Part shown: positions 45,677 through 63,588 of the stretch, in pieces
Position numbering within the stretch: the stretch's first letter is position 1
How the letters are laid out: each line of letters starts with the position of its first letter
Source: Nitrospirota bacterium
Lineage (GTDB): Bacteria > Nitrospirota > UBA9217
Direction of reading: 5' to 3'
Assembly (NCBI GenBank): GCA_963796285.1
Contig: CAWCKW010000012.1
Location: 1,408,001-1,472,000 of the forward strand
Length of the DNA: 64,000 nucleotides
The notes under the pieces: model-generated
The model's database searches: none
What the model was told of the DNA's origin: nothing
What the model saw: only the letters and a program-made list of their open reading frames with translations
Position numbers and translations under genes: made by a program

Positions 45677-46900
45677 TTAGATAACGATCCCCCCTGCCAC
45701 CGGGTGTCCCGCGTGCTCCAGCACGAACCTGCCCATCTCGGGGATCTCTGCAAAGGCGTCCACAAGGACCGGCCTGTTTAGTTTGATCAGGACATCAGCG
45801 ATCTCCGCTGCCTTGATCTTGCGAGCGTCCTGCTCGATCACTTCGATGGTAGCCGGGTCGAAGCGCCGGTAGATCCTCTCGATAACGCCCTGTGCCTCCT
45901 GCGTGGCGCACCGAAAGGTGAGCGGAATGCCAAGTTCATAGTCTTTATCAATGAGCCAGAAGATGGTGGCGCGGACCGCGTCGGTTACCGCCGGCGTCGG
46001 TTTGTCGACAAGGACATCGCCCCGCTTCACAGGAGGACCTTGAAAGCGAATGCCTATGCAGTGCCCTGCTTCGGCCTGGGGCATGTCATTCTGCATGAAT
46101 TTTTTTACCTCGACAACGATGCCGGCCGCCTTTTGAGGGAAAACATGGACGTTCTGCCCTCTCCTGATTGTTCCCGACTCGACACGTCCTACAACAACGG
46201 ATTGTCCGTCGACGTGATAGATATCCTGCACCGGGAAACGAAGGTCCTTGTCCTCTGCCGTGACAAGGGAGAAGCTGTCCAGCGCCTCCAGGACAGTGGG
46301 GCCGTCGAACCAGGATAACTGTTCGGATCTTGTTGCCACATTCTCCCCCCGCTGCGCGGAAATGGGAAGAACATGGGTGGGCGTGATCTTCAGCTGGCCC
46401 AGCGCGGTCTCTATCTCGCCCTTGATGGCACGGAAGCGGGCTTCGGAATAGGCAACGGCATCCATCTTGTTGACAAGGACGGCTATCTGTTTGAACCCGA
46501 GCAACCCCAGGATGAAGCAGTGACGCAGCGTCTGCTCCCTGATGCCTTCGGTGATGTCGACCAGGAGCAGCGCGGCCTCGGCCTGGGAAGAACCGGTGAT
46601 CATGTTCTTGAGAAACTCCTTATGCCCCGGCGCGTCGATGATGACATACCTTCGCTTGGCCGTGCGGAAGAAGGTATGGGAGATATCGATGGTGATGCCC
46701 CTGTCGCGCTCCTCTTCGAGCTGGTCCATGACATAGGCAAATTCCATCACCTTGCCCTGGGCTTCCGACGCCTGCCGGAGGGCCTCCATCCTGTCCGGCG
46801 GCAGACAGCCGGTATCATAGAACAGCCGGCCGACGAGAGTGCTCTTGCCGTGGTCCACGTGGCCGGTAATGACAATGTGCATGGATCGTTCGTCAGTCAT
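45677..46900 (-). CDS. cysN: Sulfate adenylyltransferase GTPase subunit (no APS-kinase domain)
   Basis: GHVDHGKS, GITID, DAPGH, NKMD; adjacent to cysD. Confidence 0.85.
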   Translation of the reverse strand: MTDERSMHIVITGHVDHGKSTLVGRLFYDTGCLPPDRMEALRQASEAQGKVMEFAYVMDQLEEERDRGITIDISHTFFRTAKRRYVIIDAPGHKEFLKNMITGSSQAEAALLLVDITEGIREQTLRHCFILGLLGFKQIAVLVNKMDAVAYSEARFRAIKGEIETALGQLKITPTHVLPISAQRGENVATRSEQLSWFDGPTVLEALDSFSLVTAEDKDLRFPVQDIYHVDGQSVVVGRVESGTIRRGQNVHVFPQKAAGIVVEVKKFMQNDMPQAEAGHCIGIRFQGPPVKRGDVLVDKPTPAVTDAVRATIFWLIDKDYELGIPLTFRCATQEAQGVIERIYRRFDPATIEVIEQDARKIKAAEIADVLIKLNRPVLVDAFAEIPEMGRFVLEHAGHPVAGGIVI

Positions 46901-46909
46901 TGGTTCTCC

Positions 46910-47713
46910 TTACATGTATCCCAGTGAACGGAGCTTCTGCATGGTGTACACGTCTTCCTTGTCCTGTGCCCGCCCCGCGCGCTCCGAGGTGCTGGACGTT
47001 TCCAGTTCAATGATGATATCGTCCACGCTGGCGGCGTCGGAGTCAATGGGGCTGCAGCACGGCATGCAGCCGATGCTGCGGTACCGCTTCCCCCCCTTGC
47101 TCAGATACAGGTCGACGATGGGGATATTCTCTTGCTTCATGTACTTCCAGATGTCCAGCTCCGTCATGTGCAGCAGGGGGTGCACACGGACGTGATTGTC
47201 CTCGGCAGTTGTCGTCCGGTACTGCTCCCAGAGCTCCGCAGGCTGGTCCTTGTAGTTCCAGGAAAAATTCTCGTCCCGAGGCGAGAAAACGCGCTCCTTT
47301 GCCCGGATGCCGTGCTCATCCCGACGTATGCCGACAAGGACGGCCTGGAACCCTTCCCGTGCGATAATACTCTTGAGCGCGTTCGTTTTGAGTTCGTTGC
47401 AGCAGTCGAGCTTGGCGCCCGTGTTCGGCCCCATGCATTTGGCAATCTGCTCCTCGTTCTTTCCAACGATGAGGTTCAAGCCCCACTGCTTTGCATACTC
47501 CTCCCGAAAGCGATAGATCTCCGGAAACTTGTACGACGTATCTATGTGGATGACCGGGAATGGGACCTTCCCGAAAAAGGCCTTGCGGCACAACCAGAGC
47601 AGCGTGGTCGAGTCCTTGCCGATGGACCAGAGCATGGCCATGTTCTTGAAACGCGCATAGGCTTCTCGTATGATATAGATGCTTCTGTTCTCCAGATCGG
47701 TCAAATGATCCAT
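46910..47713 (-). CDS. cysD: Sulfate adenylyltransferase subunit 2
   Basis: WSIGKDS, GIRRDE..RAKERVFS, RVHPL, YRSIGC, ERAGR. Confidence 0.93.
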   Translation of the reverse strand: MDHLTDLENRSIYIIREAYARFKNMAMLWSIGKDSTTLLWLCRKAFFGKVPFPVIHIDTSYKFPEIYRFREEYAKQWGLNLIVGKNEEQIAKCMGPNTGAKLDCCNELKTNALKSIIAREGFQAVLVGIRRDEHGIRAKERVFSPRDENFSWNYKDQPAELWEQYRTTTAEDNHVRVHPLLHMTELDIWKYMKQENIPIVDLYLSKGGKRYRSIGCMPCCSPIDSDAASVDDIIIELETSSTSERAGRAQDKEDVYTMQKLRSLGYM

Positions 47714-47906
47714 ACGGTATCCTTTCACATCAGGCGATTACGCCTCTACCATCGACAGTACATTGTCAATCTTTTCTATGCTGAAAGACAAGACATTGTC
47801 ACATAAAGAGAGAAATTCAAGATTTAAAATTCAAGATGCAAAACTTGGCGTCCTTTGCGTCTTTGCGAGAGACGCCTTTGACACTGCCTTGTTATTTTTC
47901 CCCCGA

Positions 47907-49272
47907 CTAGGACGCAGTCATCCGCTCAAGCAGAATGCGTGCCAGTCCCTCGATATGCATCCGTTCATTGGGCTGCTGCGCCTCCGGCAGGATGCAGTGG
48001 GCATCTGCGCGGGTATGCATGCCCGCAAAATTGCCTTTGCCGAAGATCTCCTGCTTCTTGAGCGACCCCTTCAGGTCGTATCCGTCATGCGGCAGACAGA
48101 CCAGATCAGGCGCGCGGTCACCCGCCGGTCCCGGATACAGGTCGACGCCATCATAGACGGCCTTGATCACTGAATTTCCTTTTTCGTCTTTAAACGAATT
48201 CCAGCGCTGCTCGTATCCGGGAGAGAACTTCGTTCTTCGCCGATGCCTTCACAGACCCCCGGGGATACTTGTTCTCAAAGTTGACGTAGATCCGCGCGGG
48301 GTCCATGGCAAAGGCCTGCGTCCCCGTGTTGATCTGCTCATAATACTCACGGACGGGATCGAGCGTGAGCAGCCCCTGCTGCTTGAGCCAGGCATTGATA
48401 TATACTTCCTGTTTGAGCACGGTGAACCCGTGGTCCGACAACGTCAGGAAGAGTCCCTTGCCATCCGTGATCTCCATGAACCGCTCATAGAGCCTCCCGA
48501 TGATGCTGTCCATCTGTTGATAAAAGGAGCGGAACACGTCGTAGCGGGGGTGCTTCGCGTCCTGCGCCGCGTCATAGAAAAAATGATGCAGCCGGTCCGT
48601 CTCGGTGATGACGCCGATGAAGAGGTCCCAGGGCTCGTGCGTCAGAAAGTGCTCGAACGCCTCTGCCCGCTTTTCCAGCGCCAGGAACAGTTCCCGAAAG
48701 AACGCGTCCTGCTGGTCCACGGCCTTGTTGGAATCTACGTCGGGAAGATAGCCCATGGAACTCAGATAGGTGTATGCCGTCTCGGGATAGGTGCCTTTCC
48801 GGAAGTCGGGGCACACGAATCCCGCTGTCAGGATCCCGTTCAGAGGCCGCGCCGGATAGGTCTGGGGGATGTTCAGGACAATGGACCGCAGGGGGCTGCG
48901 CAATCTTGTCCGGAACTGTTCGTACAGCGTCGAGGTCTTGTTGTTCACGGTCTGCCCGATCATGTCCCAGATCGTAGGGGCCTGCACACTTCCGGAATTC
49001 GGGAACATAAGCTGGTATGTCCCCGGACGGAGGTCCATGAACCCGTAGATCCCGTGTTCGCCCGGATTTACGCCGGTCATAAAGGACGTCCACGACGTGG
49101 AAGAGACGTCTGGTATGGAAGCGTCCATCTGGTGCAGGCGAAATCCGGCTGACAGGATCTTTTGCACGTTCGGCAGGATCCCTTCCCGCAGATAGTCATT
49201 GAGCAGTGAATAGGGTACACCGTCAAGGCCGATGACACAGCATCTCTGGTTGTTGTTGACCGGTACGCTCAT
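47907..49272 (-). CDS. Alkaline-phosphatase-superfamily enzyme (type I phosphodiesterase-like; frameshift near 48190)
   Basis: IGLDG, WTSFMTGVNPGEHGIYGF, TDRLHH, SDHGF, APDL, GMH. Confidence 0.85.
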
Positions 49273-49310
49273 CTGTTCTCCTAACCCGGACAATCCGGAA
49301 CCAAACCTTT

Positions 49311-49418
49311 TTTGCCACAGAGTACACGGAGGTCACAGAGGGGAAATGAACGGAAAATATTTTAGCTATGAAATTACTTTCAGCCTTTCTCCGCGTGCTT
49401 TGTGACCTTTGTGGCAAA
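49311..49418. repeat. Palindromic element TTTGCCACAGAG...CTTTGTGGCAAA
   Basis: Inverted arms with 9-nt sub-repeats. Confidence 0.65.
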
Positions 49419-49456
49419 ATATTCTTGCCTTTTGAGTAGAATTTGTTCTTAACTTA

Positions 49457-51577
49457 CTACGCCCTCTTCTCGATCCTGCACAGCAGGCCCCTGAGCTGGT
49501 ACGAGCCGAAGGCCGGGTCGTACGGCGGCGCGTTGTTCGTGAGCACGTTCGCATTGGAGTCCCAGATCCCGTGCTCCGGCCCGTGCTTTTCCGGGAACCA
49601 CCAGCCGTGCTCGACATTGATGACGCCCGGCGTCATGTCCTCGGTGACCAGGGCCTTCATCATTATGCTCCCGCGTGGCGATGTTATCCGGACATCATCA
49701 CCCTGGCTGATCCCGTGCTTTGCGGCGGTCTGAGGATGGAGTTCCACCTGGGGATGCGGTCGCTGCTTCCTGAGCGACTGGATCTGCCGGTGCTCGCTGT
49801 GAAAGAACTCGCGCCGTCTGCTGCCCGTGGTGAGCACATAGGGATACTCTTCAGCGAGCTTCGGCGTCGAGACCGGGCTTTCAGGCGGCTCCTTAAAGGT
49901 CGGGAGAGGATCATATCCCATGCGCTCCAGCGACTTGCAATAGAGCTCTACCTTTTTCGACGGCGTCCTGAATCCCTTCTTCTCGAATTTCCGGTATTCG
50001 TGCGGCGGATAGTGGAAGACCTTCTCCTTAAGCTCATCATAGGTGATCCCGAGCGGCTCGAGCTGGTAGTTCATGACGTCCCGCAGGCTTTCCCCGCTGC
50101 CCGGCAGATCGAGCCGTTTTGCCAGCATGTCCATGATCCATTCATCCTGCCTGCACTCGGCGCGCTGGGTCATCTTGCGCTGGGCCATGACCATGTTCTC
50201 CACCACGAGGGGATAGCCGATCACCTGCTCCACCTCGGTTCCGAACGCGGCAGGCAGGACGTAGTCGGCAAGCTCGGCTGAGGGCGTCATGAACAGGTCC
50301 GTCGCCACCAGGAGGTCGAGCTTCTGCAGGCTTTCGTAGACCTCGCGGGAATTCGCCACCGTTGCCAACGGGTTGTTGCCGAAGAGCAGCAGGGCGCGTA
50401 CTCGATAGGGATCGCCGGTCCTCATGGCCTTGAACAGGGCGGGAATGTGGGCTGACGGCATGAAGGCGCGCCACCCGCCGAGGAGTTTAAAGGTCTCGCC
50501 GCCGAGGCGCTTTTTCAACATGCCTTCCGGAAGCTTGTCCTTGAGCGTTGGATAGGCCCGGATGATGTTCATGCCCAGGATGTCGCCGCCGGGGACATCG
50601 ATGTTGCCGGTGATGGCCCGCAGGATCGCCAGCGCCCTTACCGTCTGGAGGGAGTTGACGTTCTGCTCGATGGCAAGCCCCCAGTCGAGGATCGCCGGCT
50701 TGTTCAAGGCGTAGGTGCGGGCAGCCAGGACGATATCCGAAGACTTGACCCCGGTGATCTTCTCGGCCCACTCAGGCGTATAGCCGGCAACGTGTGACTT
50801 CAGTTCATCAAAACCGATGGTCCATTTCTCCACGAACTCCCGGTCATAGATGCTTTCCGTGATAATGACATGGACCATGGCCAGGGCCAGTGCCGCGTCC
50901 GTGCCGGGCCGTACGGGCAGCCACTGCTTGCAGCGTTTGGCAGTCTCGGATTTCCGCGGGTCCACGGCGATCCCGATGCTGCCCGAGTCCAGCGCGCGCT
51001 TGATGGCAATGGAGAGCTCGCCGTCGGGACTGGACACGATGGGGTTATGCCCCCAGAAGAGGATACACTTGGGATGCACCTGGCCGTAGTAGTCGCCCAC
51101 CACGAAACCGCCATAGGTCAGATTGCTCACGGTGATTCGCGGAATGAAGCAGTTGGCCAGACCAGGCTCGTACCAGTTCGGCGTGCCCAGGGCATTGGCA
51201 AACCGCACCACGTGCATGTAGTGGTGCCGTCCCGTGCCCTGGCCCAGGGCGATGGATTCCGGGCCGGTCTCTTTGCGGATCTCGTCCAGGCGGGAGGCGA
51301 TCCCGTCGATCGCCTCTTCCCAGGAGATCCGTTCCCATTCTCCCGCGCCGCGCCGGCCCTTTCTTCGCAGGGGGTGCTCCAGGCGGTCTGGATGGTTCGC
51401 GATCTCCGGCGATGCCAGACCTTTGACGCACATCCATCCCTGTGACATGGGCGAAGCCGTATCGCCTTTGATTTCCGTGACCTTGCCGTTCCTGATCGTA
51501 ACGATCGTCCCGCAACCGCCGTGGCAGATCCGGCATACGCTTCTCAATACCTGTTCCTGCTCATGCTGCTCCGTCAT
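49457..51577 (-). CDS. Mo/W-bis-PGD oxidoreductase, acetylene-hydratase-like subfamily, cytoplasmic
   Basis: CRICHGGC..C [4Fe-4S], HPDRL..PL, ISWEEA, GTPNW..LANC, PGTDAAL, DYVLPAA; no Tat signal. Confidence 0.85.
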   Translation of the reverse strand: MTEQHEQEQVLRSVCRICHGGCGTIVTIRNGKVTEIKGDTASPMSQGWMCVKGLASPEIANHPDRLEHPLRRKGRRGAGEWERISWEEAIDGIASRLDEIRKETGPESIALGQGTGRHHYMHVVRFANALGTPNWYEPGLANCFIPRITVSNLTYGGFVVGDYYGQVHPKCILFWGHNPIVSSPDGELSIAIKRALDSGSIGIAVDPRKSETAKRCKQWLPVRPGTDAALALAMVHVIITESIYDREFVEKWTIGFDELKSHVAGYTPEWAEKITGVKSSDIVLAARTYALNKPAILDWGLAIEQNVNSLQTVRALAILRAITGNIDVPGGDILGMNIIRAYPTLKDKLPEGMLKKRLGGETFKLLGGWRAFMPSAHIPALFKAMRTGDPYRVRALLLFGNNPLATVANSREVYESLQKLDLLVATDLFMTPSAELADYVLPAAFGTEVEQVIGYPLVVENMVMAQRKMTQRAECRQDEWIMDMLAKRLDLPGSGESLRDVMNYQLEPLGITYDELKEKVFHYPPHEYRKFEKKGFRTPSKKVELYCKSLERMGYDPLPTFKEPPESPVSTPKLAEEYPYVLTTGSRRREFFHSEHRQIQSLRKQRPHPQVELHPQTAAKHGISQGDDVRITSPRGSIMMKALVTEDMTPGVINVEHGWWFPEKHGPEHGIWDSNANVLTNNAPPYDPAFGSYQLRGLLCRIEKRA

Positions 51578-52566
51578 TGCACGGTCCTCCCCCGTTCCTG
51601 TCGCAGGACACCCCAGAGGAATCCAAGTCCCAGCGAGGCGGCCCTGATTGAAAGAAAAAAAGGCGAGAGCATGCCGACAACCGGGTCCCTTCTGACCGCA
51701 AGCAGAGCGAAGGGAGCCATGCTCAGACCGTACAGGAAGAGCGTGGCCGCCATCGGATATACGATGACCTTTGGCCAGAGCAGCATCGCCGGCAGCCAGC
51801 CGAGTGCCAGAAACAAAAAGAGGATCTGGAGCTTCAGCGTTTGCGGGGTATAGGAGTCCTTCATCATCTTATCGGGATATCTCCGGTAGACCACCATCCT
51901 CCAGTATCCCCGCCAGAACTTGAGCCGCGCGTAACTCCTGAGGGAATCGGGATGATTGAGATGATAGACCACGGCATCAGGGTTAAAGACCATCTTTCTT
52001 CCCATGCGGGAAAGTTTGTAGGAAAGCTCCGTGTCCTCGTTGTTCGCAACAGGAAAGGATTCATCGAACCCTCCGGCCTGTCTGAAAACGTCCGATCGGT
52101 ATGCAGCGGAGTAGGTGTCCACCATGTCTATTGATGCGGCGCGTTTGAGCAGCTCAAAGCGCTCCTCGAACTCCACCTGGGCGAATCGGGCGATGAGTGC
52201 GCGCTGGTTCGTCCTGTACGCCCCTTTGACCGCCACTACGTCGGGGTCGCCAAAGGGTTTTGTCATCTCAGCGATCCAACCCGTTGAAGGGACGCAGTCC
52301 GCGTCCGTAAAGAGGATGATCTCGCCGCGGGCTTCCCGCGCTCCATGGTTCCGCGCCGTTGCGGGGCCCCGGTTCAACTGGCGAAGGTATTTCACGGGAA
52401 ATGTTCTTACAATTTCGGCCGTGCCATCCCGCGAACCGTCGTCCACCACGATGACCTCATAGTCGGTCGCATCCATAGACTGGCCGGTAAGCGCGCCCAG
52501 ACAATCGCCAATGGTCTTCCCGGCATTGTAGGCCGGAACGATGACGGAATATTTCACGACGCTCAT
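51574..52566 (-). CDS. GT2 glycosyltransferase with C-terminal TMs
   Basis: SVIVPAYN, VDDGS, ARN.G, FTDAD, NEDTE. Confidence 0.9.
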   Translation of the reverse strand: MSVVKYSVIVPAYNAGKTIGDCLGALTGQSMDATDYEVIVVDDGSRDGTAEIVRTFPVKYLRQLNRGPATARNHGAREARGEIILFTDADCVPSTGWIAEMTKPFGDPDVVAVKGAYRTNQRALIARFAQVEFEERFELLKRAASIDMVDTYSAAYRSDVFRQAGGFDESFPVANNEDTELSYKLSRMGRKMVFNPDAVVYHLNHPDSLRSYARLKFWRGYWRMVVYRRYPDKMMKDSYTPQTLKLQILFLFLALGWLPAMLLWPKVIVYPMAATLFLYGLSMAPFALLAVRRDPVVGMLSPFFLSIRAASLGLGFLWGVLRQERGRTVQ

Positions 52567-52576
52567 GTCAGCTTCC

Positions 52577-54061
52577 TCACTTACAGCTCTTGCACGCTCC
52601 CTCAGTGCCCTTGACATCGGAACCTTTAATGAGGTACTTCAGGAACGTCCTGGCCGACTTCAGGTTCCGCTTCCTTTCCGAAGGGTCCATCAACGTCTGC
52701 TTTAATTTATAGAGCAGATAGCGGGGACGGAGATAGAACTCCCGTCGCGCGTGGTCGCAGAACCGTACCAGGTCTTCGGACGAGAGCGCCTCGGTCCGCA
52801 CCACGGTGTTGTGGAGCCCCGCGGGCGTGATCCATTTGGAAAAATCGTCAGTGGTGATCAGACCTCGCTCCCGGTACCAGCGGTAGGCCTCGGTGCCGGG
52901 GTAGACCATGATGGGGTAGAACTGGACCGTGTCGGGAGTGAGCTGTTTCGCAAGCTCCAACGTCTGTTCCATCGTTTCTTTCGTTTCTCCGGGATGGCCG
53001 ACCATGAAACAGCCATGTACGAGAATTCCGGCCTTCCGCGCGTCAGCCACGAATTGATGCATTTTCTCGATCGTCATCTTTTTCTTGATGTTTTCGAGCA
53101 ATAGTTTGCTGCCGCTCTCGAATCCGACACACATGCACCTGCAGCCGGCGGCCTTCATGACCTTCATGGCCTCGTAATCGAGGTCCGCCCGCGCGTTGAT
53201 GGACCAGGAGATCTTGATCCCCCGCCTGATGATCTCCTCGGAGATCTCGATGCACCGCTTTCGGATCGCCGCGAAGGTATCGTCTTCGAAGAAGATCGCC
53301 TTCACCCCGGGGAAATTCTTGACGATGTAGTCCATCTCATCCACCACGTTGGTCACACTCCGCAGCCGCACGCGGTGCCCCATCATGGTCTGGGGATACA
53401 CGCAAAAAATGCACTGGAACGGGCATCCCCTGCTTGTCGTGATCGTGACCATCGGGAAGAGGGCATTGGGATTAAAGTAGTTCTCGATGCGCAGGAACTT
53501 CCTGTACATTGCGCTTACAAAGGGTATCGCGTCGAGGTCATCGATAAACGGCCGCCCTGCTGTCTGGACGAAGGTTCCGTTCTCCCTGAGCGTCAACCCG
53601 GCCACCGTGCGGACATCCCCCTTCCGGCCCAGCGTCTCCGCGAGGTCAAGAAGGGTATTGTCGTATTCGCCCCGGGCAACGGCGTCCACGCGTTCGTTCA
53701 GGGCAAGCGTCTCCTCCGGCAGCGCGGAAACATGGGTGCCGACGAGGACCACGAAGGACTTCGGGAACGCATCCTTGAGCTGAGCGGCAATGCCCACGTC
53801 ATTGGCAATGCTCGGTGTGCTCGTGTCCACCACGATCAGGTCCGGCTGGAATCCCTGCGCGCGCTGAAGCACATACCCCATGTCACGGCCATCGGCCGGG
53901 GCGTCGATCAGGTCCACGCCGATGCCCCTGCTCTCGAGCAGACCCGCTGCGGAGGCGAGCCACAGGGGAAAATAGAGGGTGCCGCTTTTGGTCACCGCAG
54001 GGCTTCTCTGGGACCGGGAAAAATTTTTCAGGAACGGGGGATTCAGGAGCAGTACGTTCAT
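52577..54061 (-). CDS. B12-binding radical SAM protein (HpnJ/BchE-like)
   Basis: LLNPP, PLWLA, RGCPFQCIFC, FEDD, GFES. Confidence 0.88.
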   Translation of the reverse strand: MNVLLLNPPFLKNFSRSQRSPAVTKSGTLYFPLWLASAAGLLESRGIGVDLIDAPADGRDMGYVLQRAQGFQPDLIVVDTSTPSIANDVGIAAQLKDAFPKSFVVLVGTHVSALPEETLALNERVDAVARGEYDNTLLDLAETLGRKGDVRTVAGLTLRENGTFVQTAGRPFIDDLDAIPFVSAMYRKFLRIENYFNPNALFPMVTITTSRGCPFQCIFCVYPQTMMGHRVRLRSVTNVVDEMDYIVKNFPGVKAIFFEDDTFAAIRKRCIEISEEIIRRGIKISWSINARADLDYEAMKVMKAAGCRCMCVGFESGSKLLLENIKKKMTIEKMHQFVADARKAGILVHGCFMVGHPGETKETMEQTLELAKQLTPDTVQFYPIMVYPGTEAYRWYRERGLITTDDFSKWITPAGLHNTVVRTEALSSEDLVRFCDHARREFYLRPRYLLYKLKQTLMDPSERKRNLKSARTFLKYLIKGSDVKGTEGACKSCK

Positions 54062-55303
54062 TCGGTTACCTTTCGTGTGATAGCATCATATTGTTTCAAT
54101 TGATCGGACATGAATCCGAGCGTGCCCCGGAATTCAATGGCCCTCGTGGGACAGACCAGATAGCAGTACTGGCACCCGATGCATCCGCTGTCCCGCTTTT
54201 CGAGCTGCTCCGGCAGGGCCAGTCCTAGCGGACAGTAGTCTTTGCAGCGGGTGCAGCCGGCGCGGCATTTTTCAGCATGGAGGACAAAGCCCTCGAAGCG
54301 CATCTCGCCGGGGATGAAATTGTCCTGACGCAGGCCCGACCGGAACAACAGGTAGCCGAAGGCCCGTGTGGAGGCAAGGTAGGTGAAGAACCGGGTGTTC
54401 CGGACCGCGAGAAAGTATTTCTGTCTCTTTGGGCTGTGCACAAAGGAAACCAGCGGGTTGGCCTCGGGTTTCTTGAACGTCCTCGCTATGCCCTCCAGGG
54501 CCAGCTCATCGACGAACCGTTTGTGTTTACCGGTCAGCAGGCCCAGTTCTTCCGCGAGCTTGAGGGTCCTCACCTTGCGATAGTCAAAGCGCGCGGCCTT
54601 GCTGCACGCAAGGTCGATCAGGTACGGGTCCGTGCCGATCATGATGAACCCGGTGTTCACCGGCGTCCCCCGCGTGGGCCCCAGGCCTTCCATGGATATC
54701 AGGCCGTCAACGATGTGCAGGTGCGGTTTGAGGGCCTTGTTGATGTTCAGGATGTTTCGGGCAAGGCTCTGGTGCACCTTCTTCTTGTTCTCCTGGCCGA
54801 CGAGACAGCCCATCAGATTCTTGAGACAGACGCTCATGCCGTTCTCGAAGTGGGTCTTGACCTTCGGCATGTTGATGAGCATCGCGGCCTCGACACACTC
54901 CCGCGCAATGCCGGCCTTGATCCCATCCTCAAAATCGATCAGGACCTTCTCGGAATAGTTCAGGTCCTTTATTGCCACGCCGTAATGGTCCGCGAGCCTG
55001 TCCACCATGAGCCGGGAAATGACGTTGATGTTGCTTCGGTAAAAGCCGCTGTTGGTGCCCTCTCCGATGGTGATGTTGGAATACCCCGCATCCTTCAGAA
55101 ACCCGATCACCGCCCCGACAAGACGGAGGTCCGTGGTGTTCCCGGTCAGGGCGTTCATGTTGCTGTTGAGGTTCGGCTTCAGGAGAATGGGCGCCTTTTT
55201 GTCGCGGGGCAGCAGATCGCTGTACTTTTTCCCCAGGGTATCCATTGATCCCGGCCGTTATTGCCGCGATCTTCCGCGCTTGCAGGATATCAAATCTGAA
55301 CAT
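54058..55303 (-). CDS. DUF362 protein with C-terminal 4Fe-4S ferredoxin (start 55245, or 55303 with a frameshift)
   Basis: LLKPN, KVKTH, LKNLMG, EGLGP, DP..ID; CxxCxxxCP twice. Confidence 0.82.
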
Positions 55304-56447
55304 GTTTTTCAGTGCTCCTTAGCAGTTCTTCAGCCGCATGGAAAACGTCATCCACGGAAAGATCCTCCATGCAGGCGTTGTACCGCTCGTAACGGCATGA
55401 ATTTTCATCACAGGCGGAGCGGCACGGGAATTCCTTCTCCACGACACAATGCCCCTCTCCGTAAGGCCGGGTCTCCACGCTCTTGGACGGTCCGAAGATC
55501 GCCACCGTCGGCGTCTTTATGGCCGCGGCAAGGTGCATGGGCGCGCTGTCGTTGCAGATGAACAGGTCGGCCCGGGCCAGCACGCCCGCCATCTCCCGGA
55601 GGCTGAGCGCTCCGGCAAGCGAGACCGGTTTTCGTTTCATGCATGAGGCCATTTCCGCGACCAGGGCTTTTTCACTCCCCGCTCCGAACACGACCACGGG
55701 CATGCCGTATTTTTCCATCAGTCCGTCGCACAGCGCGCTGTACCGCTGCACAGGCCACCGCTTAAGCAACAGCCTGCTGCCGGGATGGACCGCGATAAAC
55801 GGCTTTCCGATGCCCTGCTCCGCCATGATCGCGCTGACCCGCTGCTGCTCCTTGCCGTCCAGGTAGATCCCCCATTCCAGACCGTTGCCCCGGTACCCCA
55901 GATAGCGGACCAGATCGAGATGGTATTCCACCTTGTGCTTTAACCCCGGATAGGGAACAACATTGGTGAGCAGATAACCCCCGCCTCCGACGTCGTAGCT
56001 CAGGCGGTACCGCGCCCTGAAGCGCCAGGCGAGCAACAAAATATCCCGAATGTCCGCCCTGGCCTCGATCACCAGATCGAAGGTCCTCGTGCGCATCTGC
56101 TGTATGAACTCCCGGTACGCCCGTATCGAGGACGGGTAGAACCAGAAGGGATCGTGCTCGATCACCTCGTCCACGAAGGGGTTGTTCTTCAGCACCTCGG
56201 CGGCCCCTGTTGCGGTCAAAAAGGAGATCTTCACGCCCGGGTACAGTTCCTTCAACGGCTTGAGCACCGGAAGGGTCATCACCACATCGCCGATGTAGGC
56301 GGTGCGGATGATCAGAATGTTTTTGATCTCATCTGTCCGTACCTTACCGTTCTTTCGGAACAGCCGGTAAGCACCGAAGAGGAGACGACCGATCCCGTCC
56401 GCAACAGCAGTGGCGACGAGCTTTTTTTTATTTATGATCTTGTACAT
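55290..56447 (-). CDS. GT9 glycosyltransferase (heptosyltransferase-like)
   Basis: IGDVV, HPGS...KRWP, NDSAPMHLAAA, IFGPS. Confidence 0.9.
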   Translation of the reverse strand: MYKIINKKKLVATAVADGIGRLLFGAYRLFRKNGKVRTDEIKNILIIRTAYIGDVVMTLPVLKPLKELYPGVKISFLTATGAAEVLKNNPFVDEVIEHDPFWFYPSSIRAYREFIQQMRTRTFDLVIEARADIRDILLLAWRFRARYRLSYDVGGGGYLLTNVVPYPGLKHKVEYHLDLVRYLGYRGNGLEWGIYLDGKEQQRVSAIMAEQGIGKPFIAVHPGSRLLLKRWPVQRYSALCDGLMEKYGMPVVVFGAGSEKALVAEMASCMKRKPVSLAGALSLREMAGVLARADLFICNDSAPMHLAAAIKTPTVAIFGPSKSVETRPYGEGHCVVEKEFPCRSACDENSCRYERYNACMEDLSVDDVFHAAEELLRSTEKHVQI

Positions 56448-57292
56448 AATGTCTGCACAGCAAGCAGATAGTTCAGGATCCGTGCCTTCTGGTTTGCCTG
56501 CCGAGGGACCCAGTGGTAATCCCCGATCTTTCCCTCGTCAAATAACGTATTGAGGGGATTGTCATTGCACTTCGTCCATGCCGCCTTTCCCCGGGTCGCC
56601 AGGTTTATGAGCTCGATGGCATGTCCCTTATAGGCGCCCTGCATGTGGTCTTCTTCTCCCTGGTAGCGGAAGTATCCGCAGGGTACGTCACCCATGAACC
56701 GCGATGGTTCCCGTTCGTTCCAGAAAAGGTCATTCGCTGTGGGAAAACCCTTCAACGGCTTGTGCGTATCTTTCTTGGTGATGTTGAACCTGTTCGAAGG
56801 TCCTTCCCAGTCAAAAAGATATTGCACCGGCAGGTCGAACCGTGCCAGCGCGCCCGCGGCTATGGCGACCCCGATCGAAAACGAAAAGATGCCGATTTGG
56901 TCCATGTCCACCGAGGAATGCTTTGAAAATGAGTCTACGACGCGCGCAAACTCCTCCTGATGCAGGGGGCCCCAAAAATCCTCCTGCCCTCCTGTCTTTC
57001 CCCTCCCTAAGGGATCATAGTGGAGGACCGTGAATCCCAGGGCAGCGACATCGTCGGCAGTAATTTCCGTGTTCCCGTCATAATCCGTTCCCGTGCTGCC
57101 TCCGCCGGGTACGAAAACGACACCAGGATATCGGCCCGCGGAGACCGGACGATGAATGTGAGCATAGACAGGTACCCCCCCGGGACGAACGATCCAGGCC
57201 TCGTCACAGGCAGTGGAAACGACGCGGTATCCGGCCACGTTCTCAAAAACATGTTGTTTGTTCTTCCGGAACAGTCTCTGCAGAATGTTCAT
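56432..57292 (-). CDS. Alpha/beta-hydrolase-fold protein
   Basis: VFVPGG, YDPLGRG, SFSIG elbow. Confidence 0.7.
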   Translation of the reverse strand: MNILQRLFRKNKQHVFENVAGYRVVSTACDEAWIVRPGGVPVYAHIHRPVSAGRYPGVVFVPGGGSTGTDYDGNTEITADDVAALGFTVLHYDPLGRGKTGGQEDFWGPLHQEEFARVVDSFSKHSSVDMDQIGIFSFSIGVAIAAGALARFDLPVQYLFDWEGPSNRFNITKKDTHKPLKGFPTANDLFWNEREPSRFMGDVPCGYFRYQGEEDHMQGAYKGHAIELINLATRGKAAWTKCNDNPLNTLFDEGKIGDYHWVPRQANQKARILNYLLAVQTLCTRS

Positions 57293-57359: not shown

Positions 57360-58319
57360 TCAGCCCGAGCCTTCGACCTTCTCGGGCTCGATCATTTTCC
57401 CCACCATGAAGCGGTCGAGAAAATGCATCCAGCCCGGAAAGCGGGAAACATAATACTCCATTCTTTCGATGAACTGCCCGGTAACGGCCTTGATGCTCTC
57501 TTCTCCTTTTCCGCTTGAGGTCAAAGGCCGCTCGATCACGATCCGGTACCGTTTCCGCTCACCGGGTACGATGAACATCGGAAGAATAGAAGCCCCTGTT
57601 TTGTCGGCAAGGATGGCCGGGCCAAGAGGGAACAAGACCTTCCGTCCGAAGAAGCTGAAGATCTCGTATCTTCCCACCCGTTTCTCCGTACCGCTTCCAT
57701 CGCCGGTTATCATAATGACCCCGTTGTCGTGCAGCCACCGAAAGGCGGACCGCAGGAAGCCGTCTGCCATGATTATCTCGGCGGGAATCTTTGCCTCATA
57801 GCGCAGGCGAAGTCTGAACGCCACGTTCCTGCCGATCCAGCTGAGCCCCTCATCTGAGGGGAGCCCGATCTGCTTCATCCTGTAGCCGAGCCGTGCAAGC
57901 ACCACCAGCGGCAAATGCACCGGACCGAAGTGACCATGAACAAGAACCACACCCTTTCCACGTTTCAGCGCTTCGTCCAGATGTTCCAGACCATCCATTT
58001 CCACCAGCCGCTCCACGTCTCGAGCGCGGAACTTTGGAAAAACAAAAATCAGAAGGCGGTCCACATAATGGTTTCGGAAGTACTCCCGGACGCCGGCCGC
58101 CATCGATGCCCTTGTCCCCTCTGGTTTATCTTTCTGCAAGAGCGCAAGATTCTTGAGAAGCAGGGTCTTCCCCCCCTTCGAGAGGGAGAAGTGAATATCT
58201 CCAAAAGCGCTGAGCAAGGCAATACCCTGCTTGACAGGAATGATGGTTATTACCCACCTCAGCGGATACCACACAAAGAGGCGAAGTACATCACGAAAAA
58301 TACTTTCACGTACCTGCAT
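57360..58319 (-). CDS. LpxL/lysophospholipid acyltransferase family protein
   Basis: GLEHLDEAL..GKGVVL..HFG, FFGR..FP.GP.LA, P.W. Confidence 0.82.
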   Translation of the reverse strand: MQVRESIFRDVLRLFVWYPLRWVITIIPVKQGIALLSAFGDIHFSLSKGGKTLLLKNLALLQKDKPEGTRASMAAGVREYFRNHYVDRLLIFVFPKFRARDVERLVEMDGLEHLDEALKRGKGVVLVHGHFGPVHLPLVVLARLGYRMKQIGLPSDEGLSWIGRNVAFRLRLRYEAKIPAEIIMADGFLRSAFRWLHDNGVIMITGDGSGTEKRVGRYEIFSFFGRKVLFPLGPAILADKTGASILPMFIVPGERKRYRIVIERPLTSSGKGEESIKAVTGQFIERMEYYVSRFPGWMHFLDRFMVGKMIEPEKVEGSG

Positions 58320-58537: not shown

Positions 58538-59791
58538 CTAGTTGAATGCATCGAGTTTCCTCTGGAGATCCGACAGCTTCTTATCTTTATCGCTGACCAC
58601 AAGAAGATCCTTCTGTAAAATATATTGCGATACCAGCAGGGACAACAGATCATTTCCCTTGATGTTCAAGTGCGGATCGTTGCCCCAATACAAGTCTTGA
58701 TCGCGATTCAGCACATGACGGGTCTGGCGGGCCCTTTTCTTGAAAAGAGGCAATACATCGAGATGATCAATGCCTTCTTTATTGAAAAAATCGCGCAGCA
58801 TGTTCTGCGGTTTTTCCCTGTCCATTCCCTCCCAGCTGGTAAGGAAGGGATAGACCTGTTCCCGGTAAGGAATGATCACCACCAGAAGCCGGGACCCATG
58901 CCGGTCCGCAAGCGCTTTGAACGTCCGGAGATTTGAAAAATGAACGGACCAGGCCCGATCCACCCATGGTTTGTCGGAAAACGCGAGGGTGAAAGGGGTT
59001 ATCGCCTTGGTCTTTACGAGGATGTCCTTGACAAACGGCACCCTGAGGAGCATCGAACGCGCAGAGTATTTAAGCATATGGTATACGATCGATTGCCGTT
59101 CGGCCCGCCATTTAAAATTTTTGAGTAAAATGTTGTGCGGGTATTCCTTGACCCCGAATGCCTTATCTTCTTCCAGTGCGGCCTTTTCTTTATCGACAAT
59201 TTTGCCCGTTTCCATGTCCTGGATTTCCCGCGTAACGACCGGATAACCATCAATGACCGTAGCGTTGGGGAACAGGTAGTCATCTTCAAGATCGTTCAGA
59301 AAATATCCGACGATGATAAGTTTCGGCGATCGTTTTGTCCTTGAGATAACATCGGCGGCTTTTAACAGCTCCTGTCTTGTACCGTATCCGCCAACGCCGC
59401 ATTTTAATATCCGTTGCCCCAGAAGGTTCTCCGTCTTCGTTCCCCATTTGTCATTGAACGGCGCAAAGCCAAAGGTAAAACTGTCACCCACCAACAGGGT
59501 AAAATCCTTCTCTCCTGTATAGGGCATGTCAAAACAACCGAGCTCGTTCGACCAGATGCTATATTTTAGTCCGTCGACAAATGCCGAGGAGAGCGGGGCG
59601 TTATCGCGGATATCGTAACCCTTAACCGGATCAGCCTTTAGATAGTTTCGTAAGGGCTCGATCTGTATGGCAGGCAACAGGTTCTTATACGGGGTAAATC
59701 TCAGGACTATTTCCGTCAGAACAAGCATGACAAGAATGCTGGTCAATGCCAGAACAAGGTTTACAGCATATCGCGTTAATGCCCTTTTCAT
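58538..59791 (-). CDS. Membrane-anchored SGNH/GDSL protein (AlgX/AlgJ/PatB-like)
   Basis: N-terminal TM, GDSFTFG, GVGGYG, NDL, DPHLN. Confidence 0.85.
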   Translation of the reverse strand: MKRALTRYAVNLVLALTSILVMLVLTEIVLRFTPYKNLLPAIQIEPLRNYLKADPVKGYDIRDNAPLSSAFVDGLKYSIWSNELGCFDMPYTGEKDFTLLVGDSFTFGFAPFNDKWGTKTENLLGQRILKCGVGGYGTRQELLKAADVISRTKRSPKLIIVGYFLNDLEDDYLFPNATVIDGYPVVTREIQDMETGKIVDKEKAALEEDKAFGVKEYPHNILLKNFKWRAERQSIVYHMLKYSARSMLLRVPFVKDILVKTKAITPFTLAFSDKPWVDRAWSVHFSNLRTFKALADRHGSRLLVVIIPYREQVYPFLTSWEGMDREKPQNMLRDFFNKEGIDHLDVLPLFKKRARQTRHVLNRDQDLYWGNDPHLNIKGNDLLSLLVSQYILQKDLLVVSDKDKKLSDLQRKLDAFN

Positions 59792-61065
59792 TTTAAGTCC
59801 TTCAAGGTGAGTAAAAGATTAAATATCTTTTCAATAAACAGCGTGGAGGGGTTCGTAAAATACTGTGGGTAGAGAAGGGTTTCCCCAGCCTGTAGGGAGC
59901 CGTTCTTGAGAGCAATGTCATAAAGTTTTGTATTCGGTTCGATCCGCATGGAGTTAAATTCAAAGTGCACCCTCTTGCCCATTTGCATCTTTGCTTTGAG
60001 CACGAAATAAATGAGGCGAAAAAACGCCGCTACACTCTGTCCGGGAGGATTTTTGAAAAAATTGTAACTGACCTCGAACCCATCGATACTTTTCAGAAGG
60101 TCATACGTGGCAATGATGTCGCGGGTGTGAATGTTTTTGCCGAGGTTCTGCAATACTTCATCGGAAAACCCGTCAGGAGACAGAATAATATTCCTGCAGC
60201 CGGCGCTCTTGAGCAGCTCAATAAATTCTCTCGTAAGCCCCTTTTCCGTGAACCAGGCAGACCATTTCAGCGTGAGGCCGCGTCGTTTTATCTCGGTACA
60301 GATTTTTACGGCATGGTCCTGCGGCAGGTTGAAGACTGAATCCACAAACGTGAACTGTTCGACCCCCTCTTCCGCCAGCGCTTCAATCTCGTCGACGACC
60401 CTCTGTGCACTTCTGAGCCTCATTTTCTTCCCGTTCAGAAAGCCGTAGATACAGTAAACACATGCAAGGGCGCAGCCCCGCTTTGATTCGATTCCGATGG
60501 CCTCTCTCGTTTTTTGATAGGGTGCGACGGGGATCAATTTTCTATCGGGTAGCGGAGCGGCATCAAGGTCTATTTTATCGTCACTGCCGCCGGTGAAGAC
60601 CACTTCGCCGTTCTTGCGGTAATAAACCGATTTTACCTTATGAGGGGCCGTCGGATCTTCAAGAAGCTTTTGAAAGGACGCCTCCCCCTCAAGCATGACG
60701 CCGATATCGATGCGCGGTTCATCCTTCATGATTTCCGCTGCGAACATCGAAAAGCCGGAACCTCCGATTACGATCGGCGCCCCGGAGCAGTTCTTAATAA
60801 CACCGACGGTCTCTTTTAAAAAAGGATAATAGAATACGACCTTCTTTTTATTTGTGGAGTCGATGTTCCGAAGAGATATCCCGACTATGTCCGGGTGAAA
60901 ATCCTTTAAGATTACGCCTAAATCCTGGAAAGGGTCGGCAGAGAGATTGGAATCAAAGACCCGTATTTCATGGTTTTTCAACGATGAGACGAGGCAAGCC
61001 AAGCCGATCGGATATACCACCGGCTCGTTCCCGCCGAGATATGATTGCACAAGAAGCACTTTCAC
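59788..61065 (-). CDS. B12-binding radical SAM protein (resembles the lipid-biosynthesis-associated SLRNID type)
   Basis: YPIGL, GISLRNID, KRGCALACVYC, FVDSVFN. Confidence 0.85.
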   Translation of the reverse strand: MKVLLVQSYLGGNEPVVYPIGLACLVSSLKNHEIRVFDSNLSADPFQDLGVILKDFHPDIVGISLRNIDSTNKKKVVFYYPFLKETVGVIKNCSGAPIVIGGSGFSMFAAEIMKDEPRIDIGVMLEGEASFQKLLEDPTAPHKVKSVYYRKNGEVVFTGGSDDKIDLDAAPLPDRKLIPVAPYQKTREAIGIESKRGCALACVYCIYGFLNGKKMRLRSAQRVVDEIEALAEEGVEQFTFVDSVFNLPQDHAVKICTEIKRRGLTLKWSAWFTEKGLTREFIELLKSAGCRNIILSPDGFSDEVLQNLGKNIHTRDIIATYDLLKSIDGFEVSYNFFKNPPGQSVAAFFRLIYFVLKAKMQMGKRVHFEFNSMRIEPNTKLYDIALKNGSLQAGETLLYPQYFTNPSTLFIEKIFNLLLTLKDLK

Positions 61066-62558
61066 GATTTGCCCATCATTCGCTTGAATAATTTATACAT
61101 CATTTGTAATGATCGGTACAGCCATTTAAAAAACGGCCTCAAGGGCCTGCTGTTCAAAGTCTCAACAAGCGGGGAACTGACCAGAAACTTGAGCAGCGCA
61201 CTGGGAAACTTCCCCCCCTTGGCAAGCGTCATAAGCAAGTTGAGATAATTCGGCTCGCGCATGGTATAACTCTTGGCGTACACCTCTTTCCGCTCGTCCC
61301 GGACCAGACCGTCCCGCTTCGCCATCTCGTGCAGCTTCGTGCCGGGGTACAGCACCAGGGCGAAGGGCTGGAGCTGGAAGGGCTTGGGGAACTGCGCGAT
61401 CAGCTTCAAACTCTCGATCACGTCCTGCTCCGTTTCGTAGGGGACGTCCAGGATGAAATCATAGCTGGGCGGAAACATCTTGTCTTTATACTTGTTGATG
61501 ATCCGAACGGCCTGCATGACCTTCTCGTTCGACATGGTCTTCCGGTTGAAGAGCTCCTGGATCTTGCAGCTGCCGGTCTGGATGCCCATCTGGACATAGA
61601 TAAGCCCCGCATCGACGAGGAGTTTCATCTTTTCCTCGTTCACCGTCAGGGGGCTCGCCAGGCAGCTGAAAGGGAGGCCGATCTTTTCCTTGTACTCCCG
61701 GCAGAACTCCTCGAGGGCCTTCGTATTGCGGGCAAAGAATGCGTCGTCCGAGATCCAGATGAAGCCCACATAGGGCATGTGCTTCCGGACCCGGATCAGT
61801 TCCTCCATCACATGGGCCGTGGAGCGCCATCGCAGATAGCCTTCGCTGCCGTAGATGTTCTTGATCGCATCGTTGATGCAATAGGTGCATTTGTGAGGGC
61901 AGCCCCGTCCGGTCATGGTCTGGTACCCGATCCGGTGCAGGTAGTGCGATACGGTGCCGCGCTCGAGGAACTGCTTCGTCAGCTCCTCGGTCAGCGGCTG
62001 CACGCGGCCCTCGAACAGGACATGGTGGTCCTCCATGCTGTAGTCCGGCACGGGATAGGCATCAAGGTTAGTGGTGAGGGGGCGCACAGGGTTCTTGATG
62101 ATCCCGCCGTCCTTCTTCAGCCACATGTTCCGGGTTGTGGAATAATCCTGGCCCGCGGCCATCCGGTTTACCAACTCAAGCAGCGCTTCTTCTCCGTCGC
62201 CGACGCAGACCAGGTCGGCATGCTGCAGCGATTCTTCAGGCCTGATGGTGGGATGCACACCGCCCCATATCACGGGGACCGTGAGCTCCCGCTTTATGCG
62301 TTCCGTCACCTGAACGGCGCCGTCGAAGAAATTGGTCATCAGGGTCATGCCGATCAGGTCCGTATCCCTGCACAAGGAAACAACCTCGTCCAGGATATGG
62401 TCATCATACCGCTTGACGCCATAGAGTAAGTTGTCCCCCATTGGATCAGGAATAAAGATCATCCTCGTCTCGTGGCCATTGCGTTTTAAGTACGCGGAAA
62501 TCGTTCTTAGACCAAAAGAGGTTATGTCGGGATAGGGAGATATAAGTGCTATTTTCAT
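61062..62558 (-). CDS. B12-binding radical SAM protein
   Basis: WGGVHPT, GDGE, RGCPHKCTYC, SDDAF, YPGT. Confidence 0.88.
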   Translation of the reverse strand: MKIALISPYPDITSFGLRTISAYLKRNGHETRMIFIPDPMGDNLLYGVKRYDDHILDEVVSLCRDTDLIGMTLMTNFFDGAVQVTERIKRELTVPVIWGGVHPTIRPEESLQHADLVCVGDGEEALLELVNRMAAGQDYSTTRNMWLKKDGGIIKNPVRPLTTNLDAYPVPDYSMEDHHVLFEGRVQPLTEELTKQFLERGTVSHYLHRIGYQTMTGRGCPHKCTYCINDAIKNIYGSEGYLRWRSTAHVMEELIRVRKHMPYVGFIWISDDAFFARNTKALEEFCREYKEKIGLPFSCLASPLTVNEEKMKLLVDAGLIYVQMGIQTGSCKIQELFNRKTMSNEKVMQAVRIINKYKDKMFPPSYDFILDVPYETEQDVIESLKLIAQFPKPFQLQPFALVLYPGTKLHEMAKRDGLVRDERKEVYAKSYTMREPNYLNLLMTLAKGGKFPSALLKFLVSSPLVETLNSRPLRPFFKWLYRSLQMMYKLFKRMMGKS

Positions 62559-63581: not shown

Positions 63582-63588
63582 AGGCACC

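Follow-up and report, generated by a model that had tools for sequence, protein, structure and literature searches.

Enzymes with a molybdenum or tungsten (Mo/W) pterin cofactor serve respiration, catabolism, one-carbon (C1) metabolism and, lately, one thiol biosynthesis. The gene considered here lies on the reverse strand (49457..51577) of a 64,000 nt stretch of contig CAWCKW010000012.1 from a Nitrospirota bacterium, the whole of which is called the window hereafter. It encodes a predicted enzyme of this kind, P0001 (706 aa), beside a glycosyltransferase gene of family GT2 and within a cluster of glycan-type genes. No description of a Mo/W enzyme in lipopolysaccharide (LPS) or polysaccharide clusters was found in the literature covered, subscription literature and supplements being outside that scope. 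Glycosyltransferase adjacency is recurrent in the clade to which P0001 belongs. The reading favoured here, at a little under an even chance, is that P0001 serves an envelope-glycoconjugate pathway as a dedicated enzyme, doing an oxygen-independent redox tailoring of an LPS-like or polysaccharide intermediate.

The closest solved structure to P0001 is the acetylene hydratase (AH) of Syntrophotalea (Pelobacter) acetylenica (2e7z_A, E 2.8e-106, 359.5 bits, residues 14-698; phmmer against PDB), and the next is polysulfide/thiosulfate reductase 2vpw (E 1.9e-80). AH and P0001 have in common the three-domain MopB layout, a four-Cys [4Fe-4S] motif, a Cys metal ligand, a Lys following the fourth Cys (K52) and AH Trp293 (W299), and P0001, like AH, would be a cytoplasmic monomer with no partner subunits. 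According to passages of the review PMC12096430, Cys9/12/16/46 of AH are its Fe-S cysteines, Cys141 is the W ligand and Asp13 is catalytic; Asp13 is specific to the subfamily, with D13A inactive and D13E tolerated, and Trp179 and Trp472 are close to it. In the phmmer alignment (chain index of 2e7z being the published numbering minus 3) C15/C18/C22/C50 of P0001 pair with the four Fe-S cysteines, and C143, invariant in 11 of 11 aligned members, lies opposite chain Cys138, which is the W ligand Cys141. However, the residue opposite chain Asp10, the catalytic Asp13, is H19, invariant in the clade. Counted by hand along the alignment, Trp179 and Trp472 correspond to P184 and P456, adjoining clade-specific His, Glu and Asp residues, whereas Trp293 is kept as W299. 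Of the features of the AH subfamily (EC 4.2.1.112), the Cys141 ligand is present while Asp13, Trp179/Trp472 and the grouping in the tree described below are not. Because a defining AH feature was looked for and is missing, P0001 is rejected as an acetylene hydratase. The contexts differ as well, being acetylene fermentation for AH and envelope biosynthesis for the clade of P0001. To judge from passages of PMC9516567, MES of Caldithrix abyssi, an AH-related metallopterin enzyme of anaerobe biosynthesis that forms a C-S bond, comes closest as a precedent for an AH-like enzyme with a biosynthetic role. MES is 27 % identical to AH and fused to a pyridoxal phosphate (PLP) cysteine desulfurase, whereas P0001 is unfused and stands in another context.

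Three Pfam domains place P0001 within the MopB / DMSO-reductase superfamily, all of them above their cut-offs (Molybdop_Fe4S4, residues 9-62, 44.1 bits; Molybdopterin, 65-488, 130.8 bits; Molydop_binding, 581-691, 86.1 bits). The N-terminus reads MTEQHEQEQVLRSVC, and the Fe-S motif C15-R-I-C18-H19-G-G-C22 (completed by C50) begins already at residue 15, which leaves insufficient length for a twin-arginine translocation (Tat) signal; none is seen in the N-terminus. Neither a DmsB/PsrB-type Fer4_11 protein nor an NrfD-type membrane subunit was found among the 38 open reading frames (ORFs) scanned in the window. Judged by its sequence, P0001 would be a soluble, cytoplasmic, single-subunit W- or Mo-bis(pyranopterin guanine dinucleotide) (bisPGD) enzyme with one [4Fe-4S] cluster and a Cys metal ligand, the predicted cofactor-binding residues being C15, C18, C22, C50 and C143.

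No NCBIfam model reaches its cut-off for P0001. The top model, formate dehydrogenase alpha (TIGR01591), scores 328.7 against 666.25, and assignment to the FdhH type is rejected: such enzymes have His immediately after the Sec/Cys ligand, and P0001 has Phe144 after Cys143. PhsA (NF012032) is second at 297.4 against 694. Psr/Phs enzymes are Tat-exported and partnered by PsrB/PsrC subunits; P0001, although 2VPW is its second-closest solved relative, has no signal peptide and no PsrB/PsrC-type genes (no Fer4_11 or NrfD neighbours in the window), and the PsrA/PhsA assignment is rejected too. A respiratory or catabolic role in general, whether as a terminal reductase of Psr/Phs/Dms type or as a genuine acetylene hydratase, is suggested by source annotations of relatives as 'thiosulfate/polysulfide reductase chain A' or 'anaerobic dehydrogenase'. 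It is nevertheless very improbable in view of the missing Tat signal, the absence of Fe-S and membrane-anchor subunit genes nearby, the failure of all NCBIfam respiratory models, the loss of Asp13 and the biosynthetic context seen in 61 of 80 related loci.

The start junction of the gene reads GGGGGAGGACCGTGCAATGACG. Its ATG (51577-51575) overlaps by 4 bases (ATGA) with the stop codon TGA of the GT2 gene that lies upstream (ORF 51574..52617), and GGAGG stands 8 nt 5′ of the ATG. Such overlaps are not peculiar to this pair, since most cluster neighbours overlap by 4-41 nt judging from ORF coordinates. The direct flanks of the gene are GT2 on one side and an alkaline-phosphatase-superfamily 'Phosphodiest' protein (PDE) on the other. 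Contigs from three metatranscriptome libraries, belonging to relatives at 90-95 % identity, cover parts of the enzyme, GT2, radical-SAM (rSAM), DUF362-ferredoxin and CysD/N genes, and one of 245 nt bridges the GT2/enzyme junction; strand, level and a single transcript are not readable from such contigs. With DNA carry-over in the libraries possible, they are a weak hint of expression.

A word-indexed protein search scored 8000 candidates, of which 3288 reached an E-value of 1e-50 or lower. Among the top 120 homologues identity to P0001 is 68-100 %, and most have ~705 aa, with a few shorter and one of 814 aa; names among them are Nitrospirae/Nitrospirota, Deltaproteobacteria, Planctomycetota (including Candidatus Kuenenia, 77 %), Schekmanbacteria and Magnetococcales. 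The motif C-R-x-C-H-G-G-C is present in 111 of these 120, and the other nine give no motif match, several being short and lacking a match to the Fe4S4 domain. Carriers of the clade, at 60-98 % identity, are Nitrospirota, anammox Planctomycetota, Desulfobacterota and one Chromatiaceae isolate. In an exhaustive search of 50 %-identity cluster representatives, of which 150 were listed, the nearest protein outside the clade is 48 % identical (746 bits) and the remaining listed representatives reach at most 44 %. All 150 score at least 398.8 bits against P0001, compared with 359.5 bits for AH in the separate PDB search, so that AH is just a remote member of a large radiation that is otherwise uncharacterised. 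The residue following the second Cys is His in 35 of the 150, Tyr in 13 and Asp in 4 (the regular expression matched no motif in 43); His is thus the commonest state in this radiation. A tree of 145 rows was built from 16 clade members and 129 representatives of 640-840 aa; 21 representatives outside this length range were excluded and AH itself is absent. The clade is monophyletic (SH-aLRT 100) on a stem of 0.28, with P0121 as its sister, and P0166, a representative with the AH-type CxxCD motif, falls in the other half of the tree. These comparisons place P0001, as far as sequence can tell, in a distinct, slowly evolving clade of a large acetylene-hydratase-like branch of the MopB superfamily.

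The sequence-only reading of this locus had reported the ATGA overlap with the GT2 gene, the lack of a Tat signal and of partner subunits, a Cys at the metal-ligand position and, in CRICHGGC, a His where AH has Asp13. Each of these points holds; the AH sequence on which it relied agrees with passages of PMC12096430, and the motif, given its frequency among the best homologues, is not a chance feature. Its proposal of a biosynthetic rather than respiratory DMSO-reductase-family enzyme is likewise supported. The outcome that it had named as refuting, closest homologues in respiratory or catabolic operons and a glycosyltransferase adjacency peculiar to this genome, was looked for and did not emerge, glycan context being present in 61 of 80 loci. 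Its label 'acetylene-hydratase-like' is right as to the nearest solved structure and misleading as to kinship, given that all 150 listed representatives outscore AH and that the AH-type sequence lies in the other half of the tree.

Forty positions are specific to the clade, being conserved in at least 97 % of 111 clade members and shared by at most 12 % of the 129 representatives. They include G112, Q113, H118, H119, H122, W135, Y136, E137, H177, D185, G186, E187, Q451, N461, E479, W480 and E590. Several sit in loops aligned with AH Ile113, Cys141, Trp179 and Trp472, and this suggests a pocket in P0001 that is polar instead of hydrophobic. Among the 150 nearest representatives, P0125 (44 % identical, motif CRGCHGGC) is fused to Fer4 and an [FeFe]-hydrogenase-like domain, P0167 and P0194 to GltD-like NAD(P)H modules and P0159 to Fer4_11. 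A further fusion, of P0160 to a BtrH_N/DUF4872 module, was observed; P0160 and P0125 are relatives at 38-44 % identity.

Redox tailoring is favoured because the catalytic acid of AH is missing, the pocket loops are polar and relatives are fused to electron-input modules. The main rival keeps the same pathway and makes the chemistry non-redox, namely an AH-like hydration of an enol ether or C=C bond, or the dehydration of a sugar or cyclitol, with the Fe-S cluster only keeping the metal reduced. AH as the nearest solved structure, the shared monomeric state without partner subunits, the Cys ligand, the retained Trp293 (W299) and the lack of a consistently adjoining reductase gene all agree with it. 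It is unlikely all the same: the invariant His occupies the place of Asp13, which AH needs for activity (D13A being inactive in the passages of PMC12096430), Trp179 and Trp472 are replaced by Pro with polar residues around, AH-type sequences branch far off and near relatives carry the electron-input fusions.

Gene context was examined in a scan of one genome per species, which gave 195 relatives; the best 80 loci (60-98 % identity) were analysed. Neighbours were identified by tblastn with the cluster proteins of the window and with polysaccharide genes from Pfam-annotated loci. Four high-GC loci (L064, L068, L078, L080) gave spurious long ORFs in simple gene calling; the 10 ORFs of L080 were excluded from Pfam annotation and all four loci from NCBIfam naming. 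A glycan-type neighbour (GT2, HpnJ-like rSAM, GT9, Bac_transf, AMP-ligase, Poly_export or Wzz) lies within 8 kb in 61 of 80 loci, and GT2, Bac_transf, Poly_export or AMP-ligase within 300 bp in 45. The embedding in glycosyltransferase clusters that the sequence-only reading proposed to look for is therefore recurrent, and the adjacency is not unique to this genome. Counts for individual neighbours among the 80 loci are as follows.

GT2 orthologue: 39 within 8 kb; 28 within 300 bp (27 of the 70 loci with at least 1.2 kb upstream)
HpnJ-like rSAM: 31 within 8 kb; 1 within 300 bp
DUF362-ferredoxin: 23 within 8 kb; 0 within 300 bp
GT9: 15 within 8 kb; 0 within 300 bp
PDE: 13 within 8 kb; 13 within 300 bp (13 of the 66 loci with at least 1.5 kb downstream)
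CysD and CysN: 11 and 10 within 8 kb; 0 and 0 within 300 bp
Bac_transf: 16 within 8 kb; 9 within 300 bp
Poly_export: 17 within 8 kb; 11 within 300 bp

The gap from GT2 stop to enzyme start is at most 13 nt in 19 of 26 loci and is ATGA in four, including Marichromatium gracile DSM 203, with starts chosen heuristically. In M. gracile DSM 203 (L064) the gene order is rSAM-GT2-enzyme-Bac_transf-AMP-ligase-ADH. In NCBIfam naming the Bac_transf genes are exopolysaccharide (EPS) polyprenyl glycosylphosphotransferases, above cut-off, and one zinc-dependent alcohol dehydrogenase (Zn-ADH) is an IolM-type scyllo-inosose 3-dehydrogenase (526 against a cut-off of 450). The sister clade is without this envelope-glycan context: in 25 of its loci (L092-L116) no homologue of a cluster protein other than the enzyme was found, an unrelated sigma-54 regulator query matching one, and the 31 neighbours annotated in five loci include no glycan families.

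Linkage extends to enzymes that are not beside the rSAM gene. In the five such genomes searched (Ca. Electrothrix laxa, Ca. Magnetomicrobium, Ca. Kuenenia hertensis and the genomes of loci L043 and L070) an rSAM orthologue is present in all five, 57-68 % identical. In four of them it lies inside a block of LpxL-like, GT9, DUF362-ferredoxin and rSAM genes, with the GT2 orthologue next in three (it was not detected within the Magnetomicrobium locus). The block follows directly after fabZ, lpxA and lpxI in Ca. Electrothrix laxa; in Ca. Kuenenia hertensis the rSAM gene is accompanied by GT9, another B12 rSAM and an LpxL-like gene, with a Wzy_C O-antigen-ligase-type gene nearby. Of 251 genomes sampled from the window's phylum, nine have the enzyme (among 8 other congeners, 1 has it), and an rSAM of at least 64 % identity occurs in precisely the same nine; seven more genomes have an rSAM at 51-54 % and no enzyme. 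In a sample of a second phylum, 10 of 251 genomes have the enzyme, 8 the rSAM and 7 both.

Patchy distribution of this kind could also mean that the enzyme is a bystander, a general cytoplasmic reductase or repair enzyme (for S- or N-oxides, for example) carried in mobile envelope-gene islands. AhpC as nearest neighbour in Brocadiaceae loci and the separation of enzyme and rSAM block in cable bacteria point the same way. Such a role is quite improbable, however, given the tight coupling to three glycan-gene partners (GT2, Bac_transf, Poly_export) in separate lineages, the genome-wide co-occurrence with the rSAM block even where the two are unlinked, and the sister clade without such context.

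The cluster in this genome has the following features, in window coordinates.

49457..51577, reverse strand, Mo/W-bisPGD enzyme P0001, 706 aa, with motif C15-R-I-C18-H19-G-G-C22 plus C50 and metal-ligand Cys143
51574..52617, reverse strand, GT2 glycosyltransferase, hydrophobic segments in its C-terminal part; stop codon and enzyme start overlap (ATGA)
52577..54061, reverse strand, HpnJ-like B12-binding rSAM enzyme (TIGR03471 425.8 bits, cut-off 577.6, full-length match)
54058..55245, reverse strand, fusion of a DUF362 (LarA-clan) domain and a 4Fe-4S ferredoxin-type domain, from domain matches
55290..56447, reverse strand, GT9 (heptosyltransferase-family) glycosyltransferase, just under heptosyltransferase cut-offs
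56432..57292, reverse strand, ORF with only a weak alpha/beta-hydrolase match
57360..58319, reverse strand, divergent paralogue of the LpxL-family (lipid A biosynthesis) acyltransferases
58538..59791, reverse strand, ORF with weak SGNH/AlgX-like matches
59788..61065, reverse strand, B12-binding rSAM enzyme (BzaD and 'lipid biosynthesis' models, below cut-offs)
61062..62609, reverse strand, B12-binding rSAM enzyme
63159..63626, reverse strand, SxtJ-like small protein
From 63589 past the window end (63589-64000 within it), reverse strand, NodU/CmcH-type carbamoyltransferase, upstream of the SxtJ-like gene
49294..49456, no strand assigned, 163-bp spacer between the enzyme and PDE genes, a copy of a dispersed intergenic repeat, in this genome only
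48190..49293, reverse strand, PDE, in which no signal peptide was seen; translation probably starts at an ATG ~21 nt into the listed ORF
46910..47728, reverse strand, CysD, sulfate adenylyltransferase small subunit (NF003587 355 bits, cut-off 195)
45677..46900, reverse strand, CysN-like GTPase subunit without an APS-kinase domain (TIGR02034 302.6 bits, cut-off 336.1)

The C-terminal third of the GT2 protein is hydrophobic, which suggests a lipid-linked acceptor. The same-strand cluster runs ~17 kb past the right end of the window (region C12:1470001-1489000, starting at window position 62001), where it holds the carbamoyltransferase, a GDSL hydrolase, a B12 rSAM, an LpxL-like gene, a second PDE (537 aa), Wzx (Polysacc_synt), an unknown ORF, Wzy_C, Wzz/kinase, Poly_export, Zn-ADH and AMP-ligase genes. 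Because the same strand continues into the Wzx/Wzy_C/Wzz/Poly_export genes, two context types of other genomes, the glycolipid block and the polysaccharide genes, are united here in one cluster of ~40 kb. The LpxL-like genes of the cluster match weakly (74-82 bits), and a canonical LpxL copy (248 bits) is present elsewhere in the genome. The SxtJ-like gene stands beside the NodU/CmcH-type carbamoyltransferase gene within the glycan cluster; this pairing also occurs in saxitoxin clusters, an analogy which suggests that the cluster product is O-carbamoylated.

The sequence-only reading had offered the DUF362-ferredoxin as a source of electrons for the enzyme, and this did not hold up. Among the 80 loci its gene occurs with the rSAM gene in 23 and without it in none, the rSAM occurs without it in eight, and it is absent from many enzyme loci. 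From these counts the DUF362-Fe-S protein is more likely a partner of the rSAM than of the Mo/W enzyme. DUF362 belongs to the LarA clan and is not a plain ferredoxin, according to passages of PMC11770544, and for this reason the protein may itself be an enzyme.

On its other flank the enzyme gene is separated from the PDE gene by nothing except the 163-bp repeat insertion. The repeat, which contains an imperfect 31-nt inverted repeat, is matched at 16 places in the genome, and two of these matches, 85-88 % identical, are nearly full-length. It is missing from related strains, in which one DNA contig and one RNA-library contig show the joint 49274->49457, and enzyme, PDE, CysD and CysN were thus contiguous before. 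A role linked to sulfur, in which P0001 together with PDE, CysD and CysN reduces or transfers activated sulfur (derived from adenosine 5′-phosphosulfate (APS), or polysulfide- or thiosulfate-like) for a sulfated or sulfur-containing sugar, comes next after the non-redox rival and ahead of the bystander and respiratory ones. Its bases are this arrangement, PDE within 300 bp in 13 of 66 loci, CysD and CysN in 11 and 10 of 80, 2vpw as second-closest solved relative (E 1.9e-80), PhsA as second-best NCBIfam model and the existence of a C-S bond-forming AH-like enzyme (MES, in passages of PMC9516567). It is improbable, considering that most enzyme loci lack PDE and CysDN, that the PhsA score (297) is far under the cut-off (694), that P0001 has no MES-type cysteine-desulfurase fusion, and that APS kinase is ~75 kb from the enzyme gene with no Sulfotransfer_3 family protein found in the genome. 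Sulfation machinery within the cluster was rejected on the last two grounds, with Sulfotransfer_3 as the sulfotransferase family searched and other families not covered.

Two known pathways invite comparison with the cluster. The first is that of the hopanoid cyclitol ether, which resembles it in pairing a membrane GT2 with a B12 rSAM, the rSAM of the cluster being from the closest paralogue family of HpnJ (full-length match). In passages of PMC13459092, the GT2 HpnI adds a hexosamine and HpnJ is proposed to contract the lipid-bound glucosamine to a cyclitol. By analogy, a carbocyclic head group may be what GT2 and rSAM build together in the cluster. The rSAM, however, is below the HpnJ cut-off (425.8 against 577.6, TIGR03471), the GT2 matches no HpnI model and no squalene-hopene cyclase (SQHop_cyclase_C) was matched in the 96 %-complete genome. 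Both a hopanoid acceptor and the identification of the rSAM as HpnJ proper were rejected on these grounds. The hopanoid pathway is not known to contain a Mo/W enzyme. The second is canonical lipid A/LPS-core synthesis (LpxL, WaaC/WaaF). The block has LpxL- and GT9-family genes and in one genome abuts fabZ-lpxA-lpxI, but the LpxL-like genes are divergent paralogues and GT9 falls just under the heptosyltransferase cut-offs. The textbook lipid A/LPS pathway is not known to include rSAM or Mo/W enzymes. An XrtA/PEP-CTERM exopolysaccharide system was also rejected, the sole exosortase match being ~1 Mb away; in related loci the pepcterm_export, TyrKin, ChnLen and ligase_PEP_1 models stay below cut-off and only the generic EPS_sugtrans model TIGR03025 passes.

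Domain content, cofactor motifs, clade and conserved genomic and phyletic linkage being matters of observation, we infer the redox chemistry, substrate class, electron donor and metal of the envelope-pathway reading in the following form. The core of the pathway would be an LPS-like glycolipid module of LpxL-like acyltransferases, GT9, the DUF362-Fe-S protein, the HpnJ-like B12 rSAM and the membrane GT2, joined to a Wzx/Wzy/Wza/Wzc-type polysaccharide assembly. P0001, with W or Mo as its metal, would act on the cytoplasmic face, ahead of export, in an oxygen-independent two-electron step, which could be a reduction, a dehydroxylation or a water-derived hydroxylation. Its target would be a polar intermediate of sugar, cyclitol or sugar-acid type, either produced by the co-translated GT2 and the rSAM or destined for them. 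A ferredoxin-type donor would supply the electrons via the [4Fe-4S] cluster of the enzyme.

A bolder version is put forward tentatively, as possible and rather doubtful. In it the clade would be the first Mo/W-bisPGD enzyme of envelope biosynthesis, an oxygen-independent substitute, in anaerobes, for oxygenase-type tailoring that acts on the product of the membrane GT2 and the HpnJ-like ring-contracting rSAM. An LPS-like glycolipid or polysaccharide would thereby receive a head group that is carbocyclic (of cyclitol type) or altered in another way by deoxygenation or hydroxylation. This structure would be common to Nitrospirota, anammox bacteria, Desulfobacterota (cable bacteria among them) and some purple sulfur bacteria.

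Several points weigh against the envelope-pathway reading. No clade member has a known substrate, product or activity. AH keeps its Fe-S cluster without net redox, and cofactor retention is therefore no proof of redox chemistry; the fusion proteins cited above are just 41-44 % identical to P0001 and were excluded from the tree by length. No dedicated electron donor accompanies the enzyme, since the DUF362-Fe-S gene tracks the rSAM. By the tblastn criteria 19 of 80 loci have no glycan neighbour, mostly loci that are short or end close to the gene; one of the 19, L058, has a heptosyltransferase II/GmhB fusion overlapping the enzyme start. L080 and L012 have long flanks and no glycan match, and several Brocadiaceae loci have AhpC and a sigma-54 regulator instead of glycan genes. 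In the second phylum 3 of 10 enzyme genomes are without an rSAM match at E 1e-150 or better and one genome has the rSAM only. Additionally, the sampled genomes are related, so that independent events are fewer than the phyletic counts suggest.

Taken with its company of glycan genes, the identity of ~70-79 % that the clade retains between phyla implies a strongly constrained, undescribed envelope structure, and the whole points to an unrecognised oxygen-free tailoring step in the envelope biosynthesis of many anaerobic bacteria. A new reaction type for the Mo/W enzyme family is implied. Carriers include environmentally important groups, namely anammox bacteria, cable bacteria, magnetotactic Nitrospirota and groundwater sulfate reducers, and the gene, its partners and a cultured carrier give a concrete handle on the structure. 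The automatic labels polysulfide/thiosulfate reductase or 'anaerobic dehydrogenase' for these genes are corrected.

Some further features of the window and genome were observed. The genome has ~10 further MopB genes, one of them ~64 kb from the P0001 gene (C12:1393338), and three matches with in-frame TGA may be selenocysteine formate-dehydrogenase-type enzymes. Another DUF362 gene, at 23840-24742 and lacking a ferredoxin domain, is close to an ORF of polyferredoxin type (22133-23209) with many Fer4 matches; by its position it is unrelated to the cluster. Two tryptophan-pathway ORFs are short (28804-29496, a 230-aa PALP fragment, and 33695-34486, 263 aa with the anthranilate synthase I N-terminal domain only) and may be assembly frame errors or split genes. 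In the region of 36807-37964 and 40050-41708, a RuBisCO-large-chain-like protein of 385 aa is likely a RuBisCO-like protein; near its gene are a split transketolase pair and a GalT/HIT-family gene (41903-43012).

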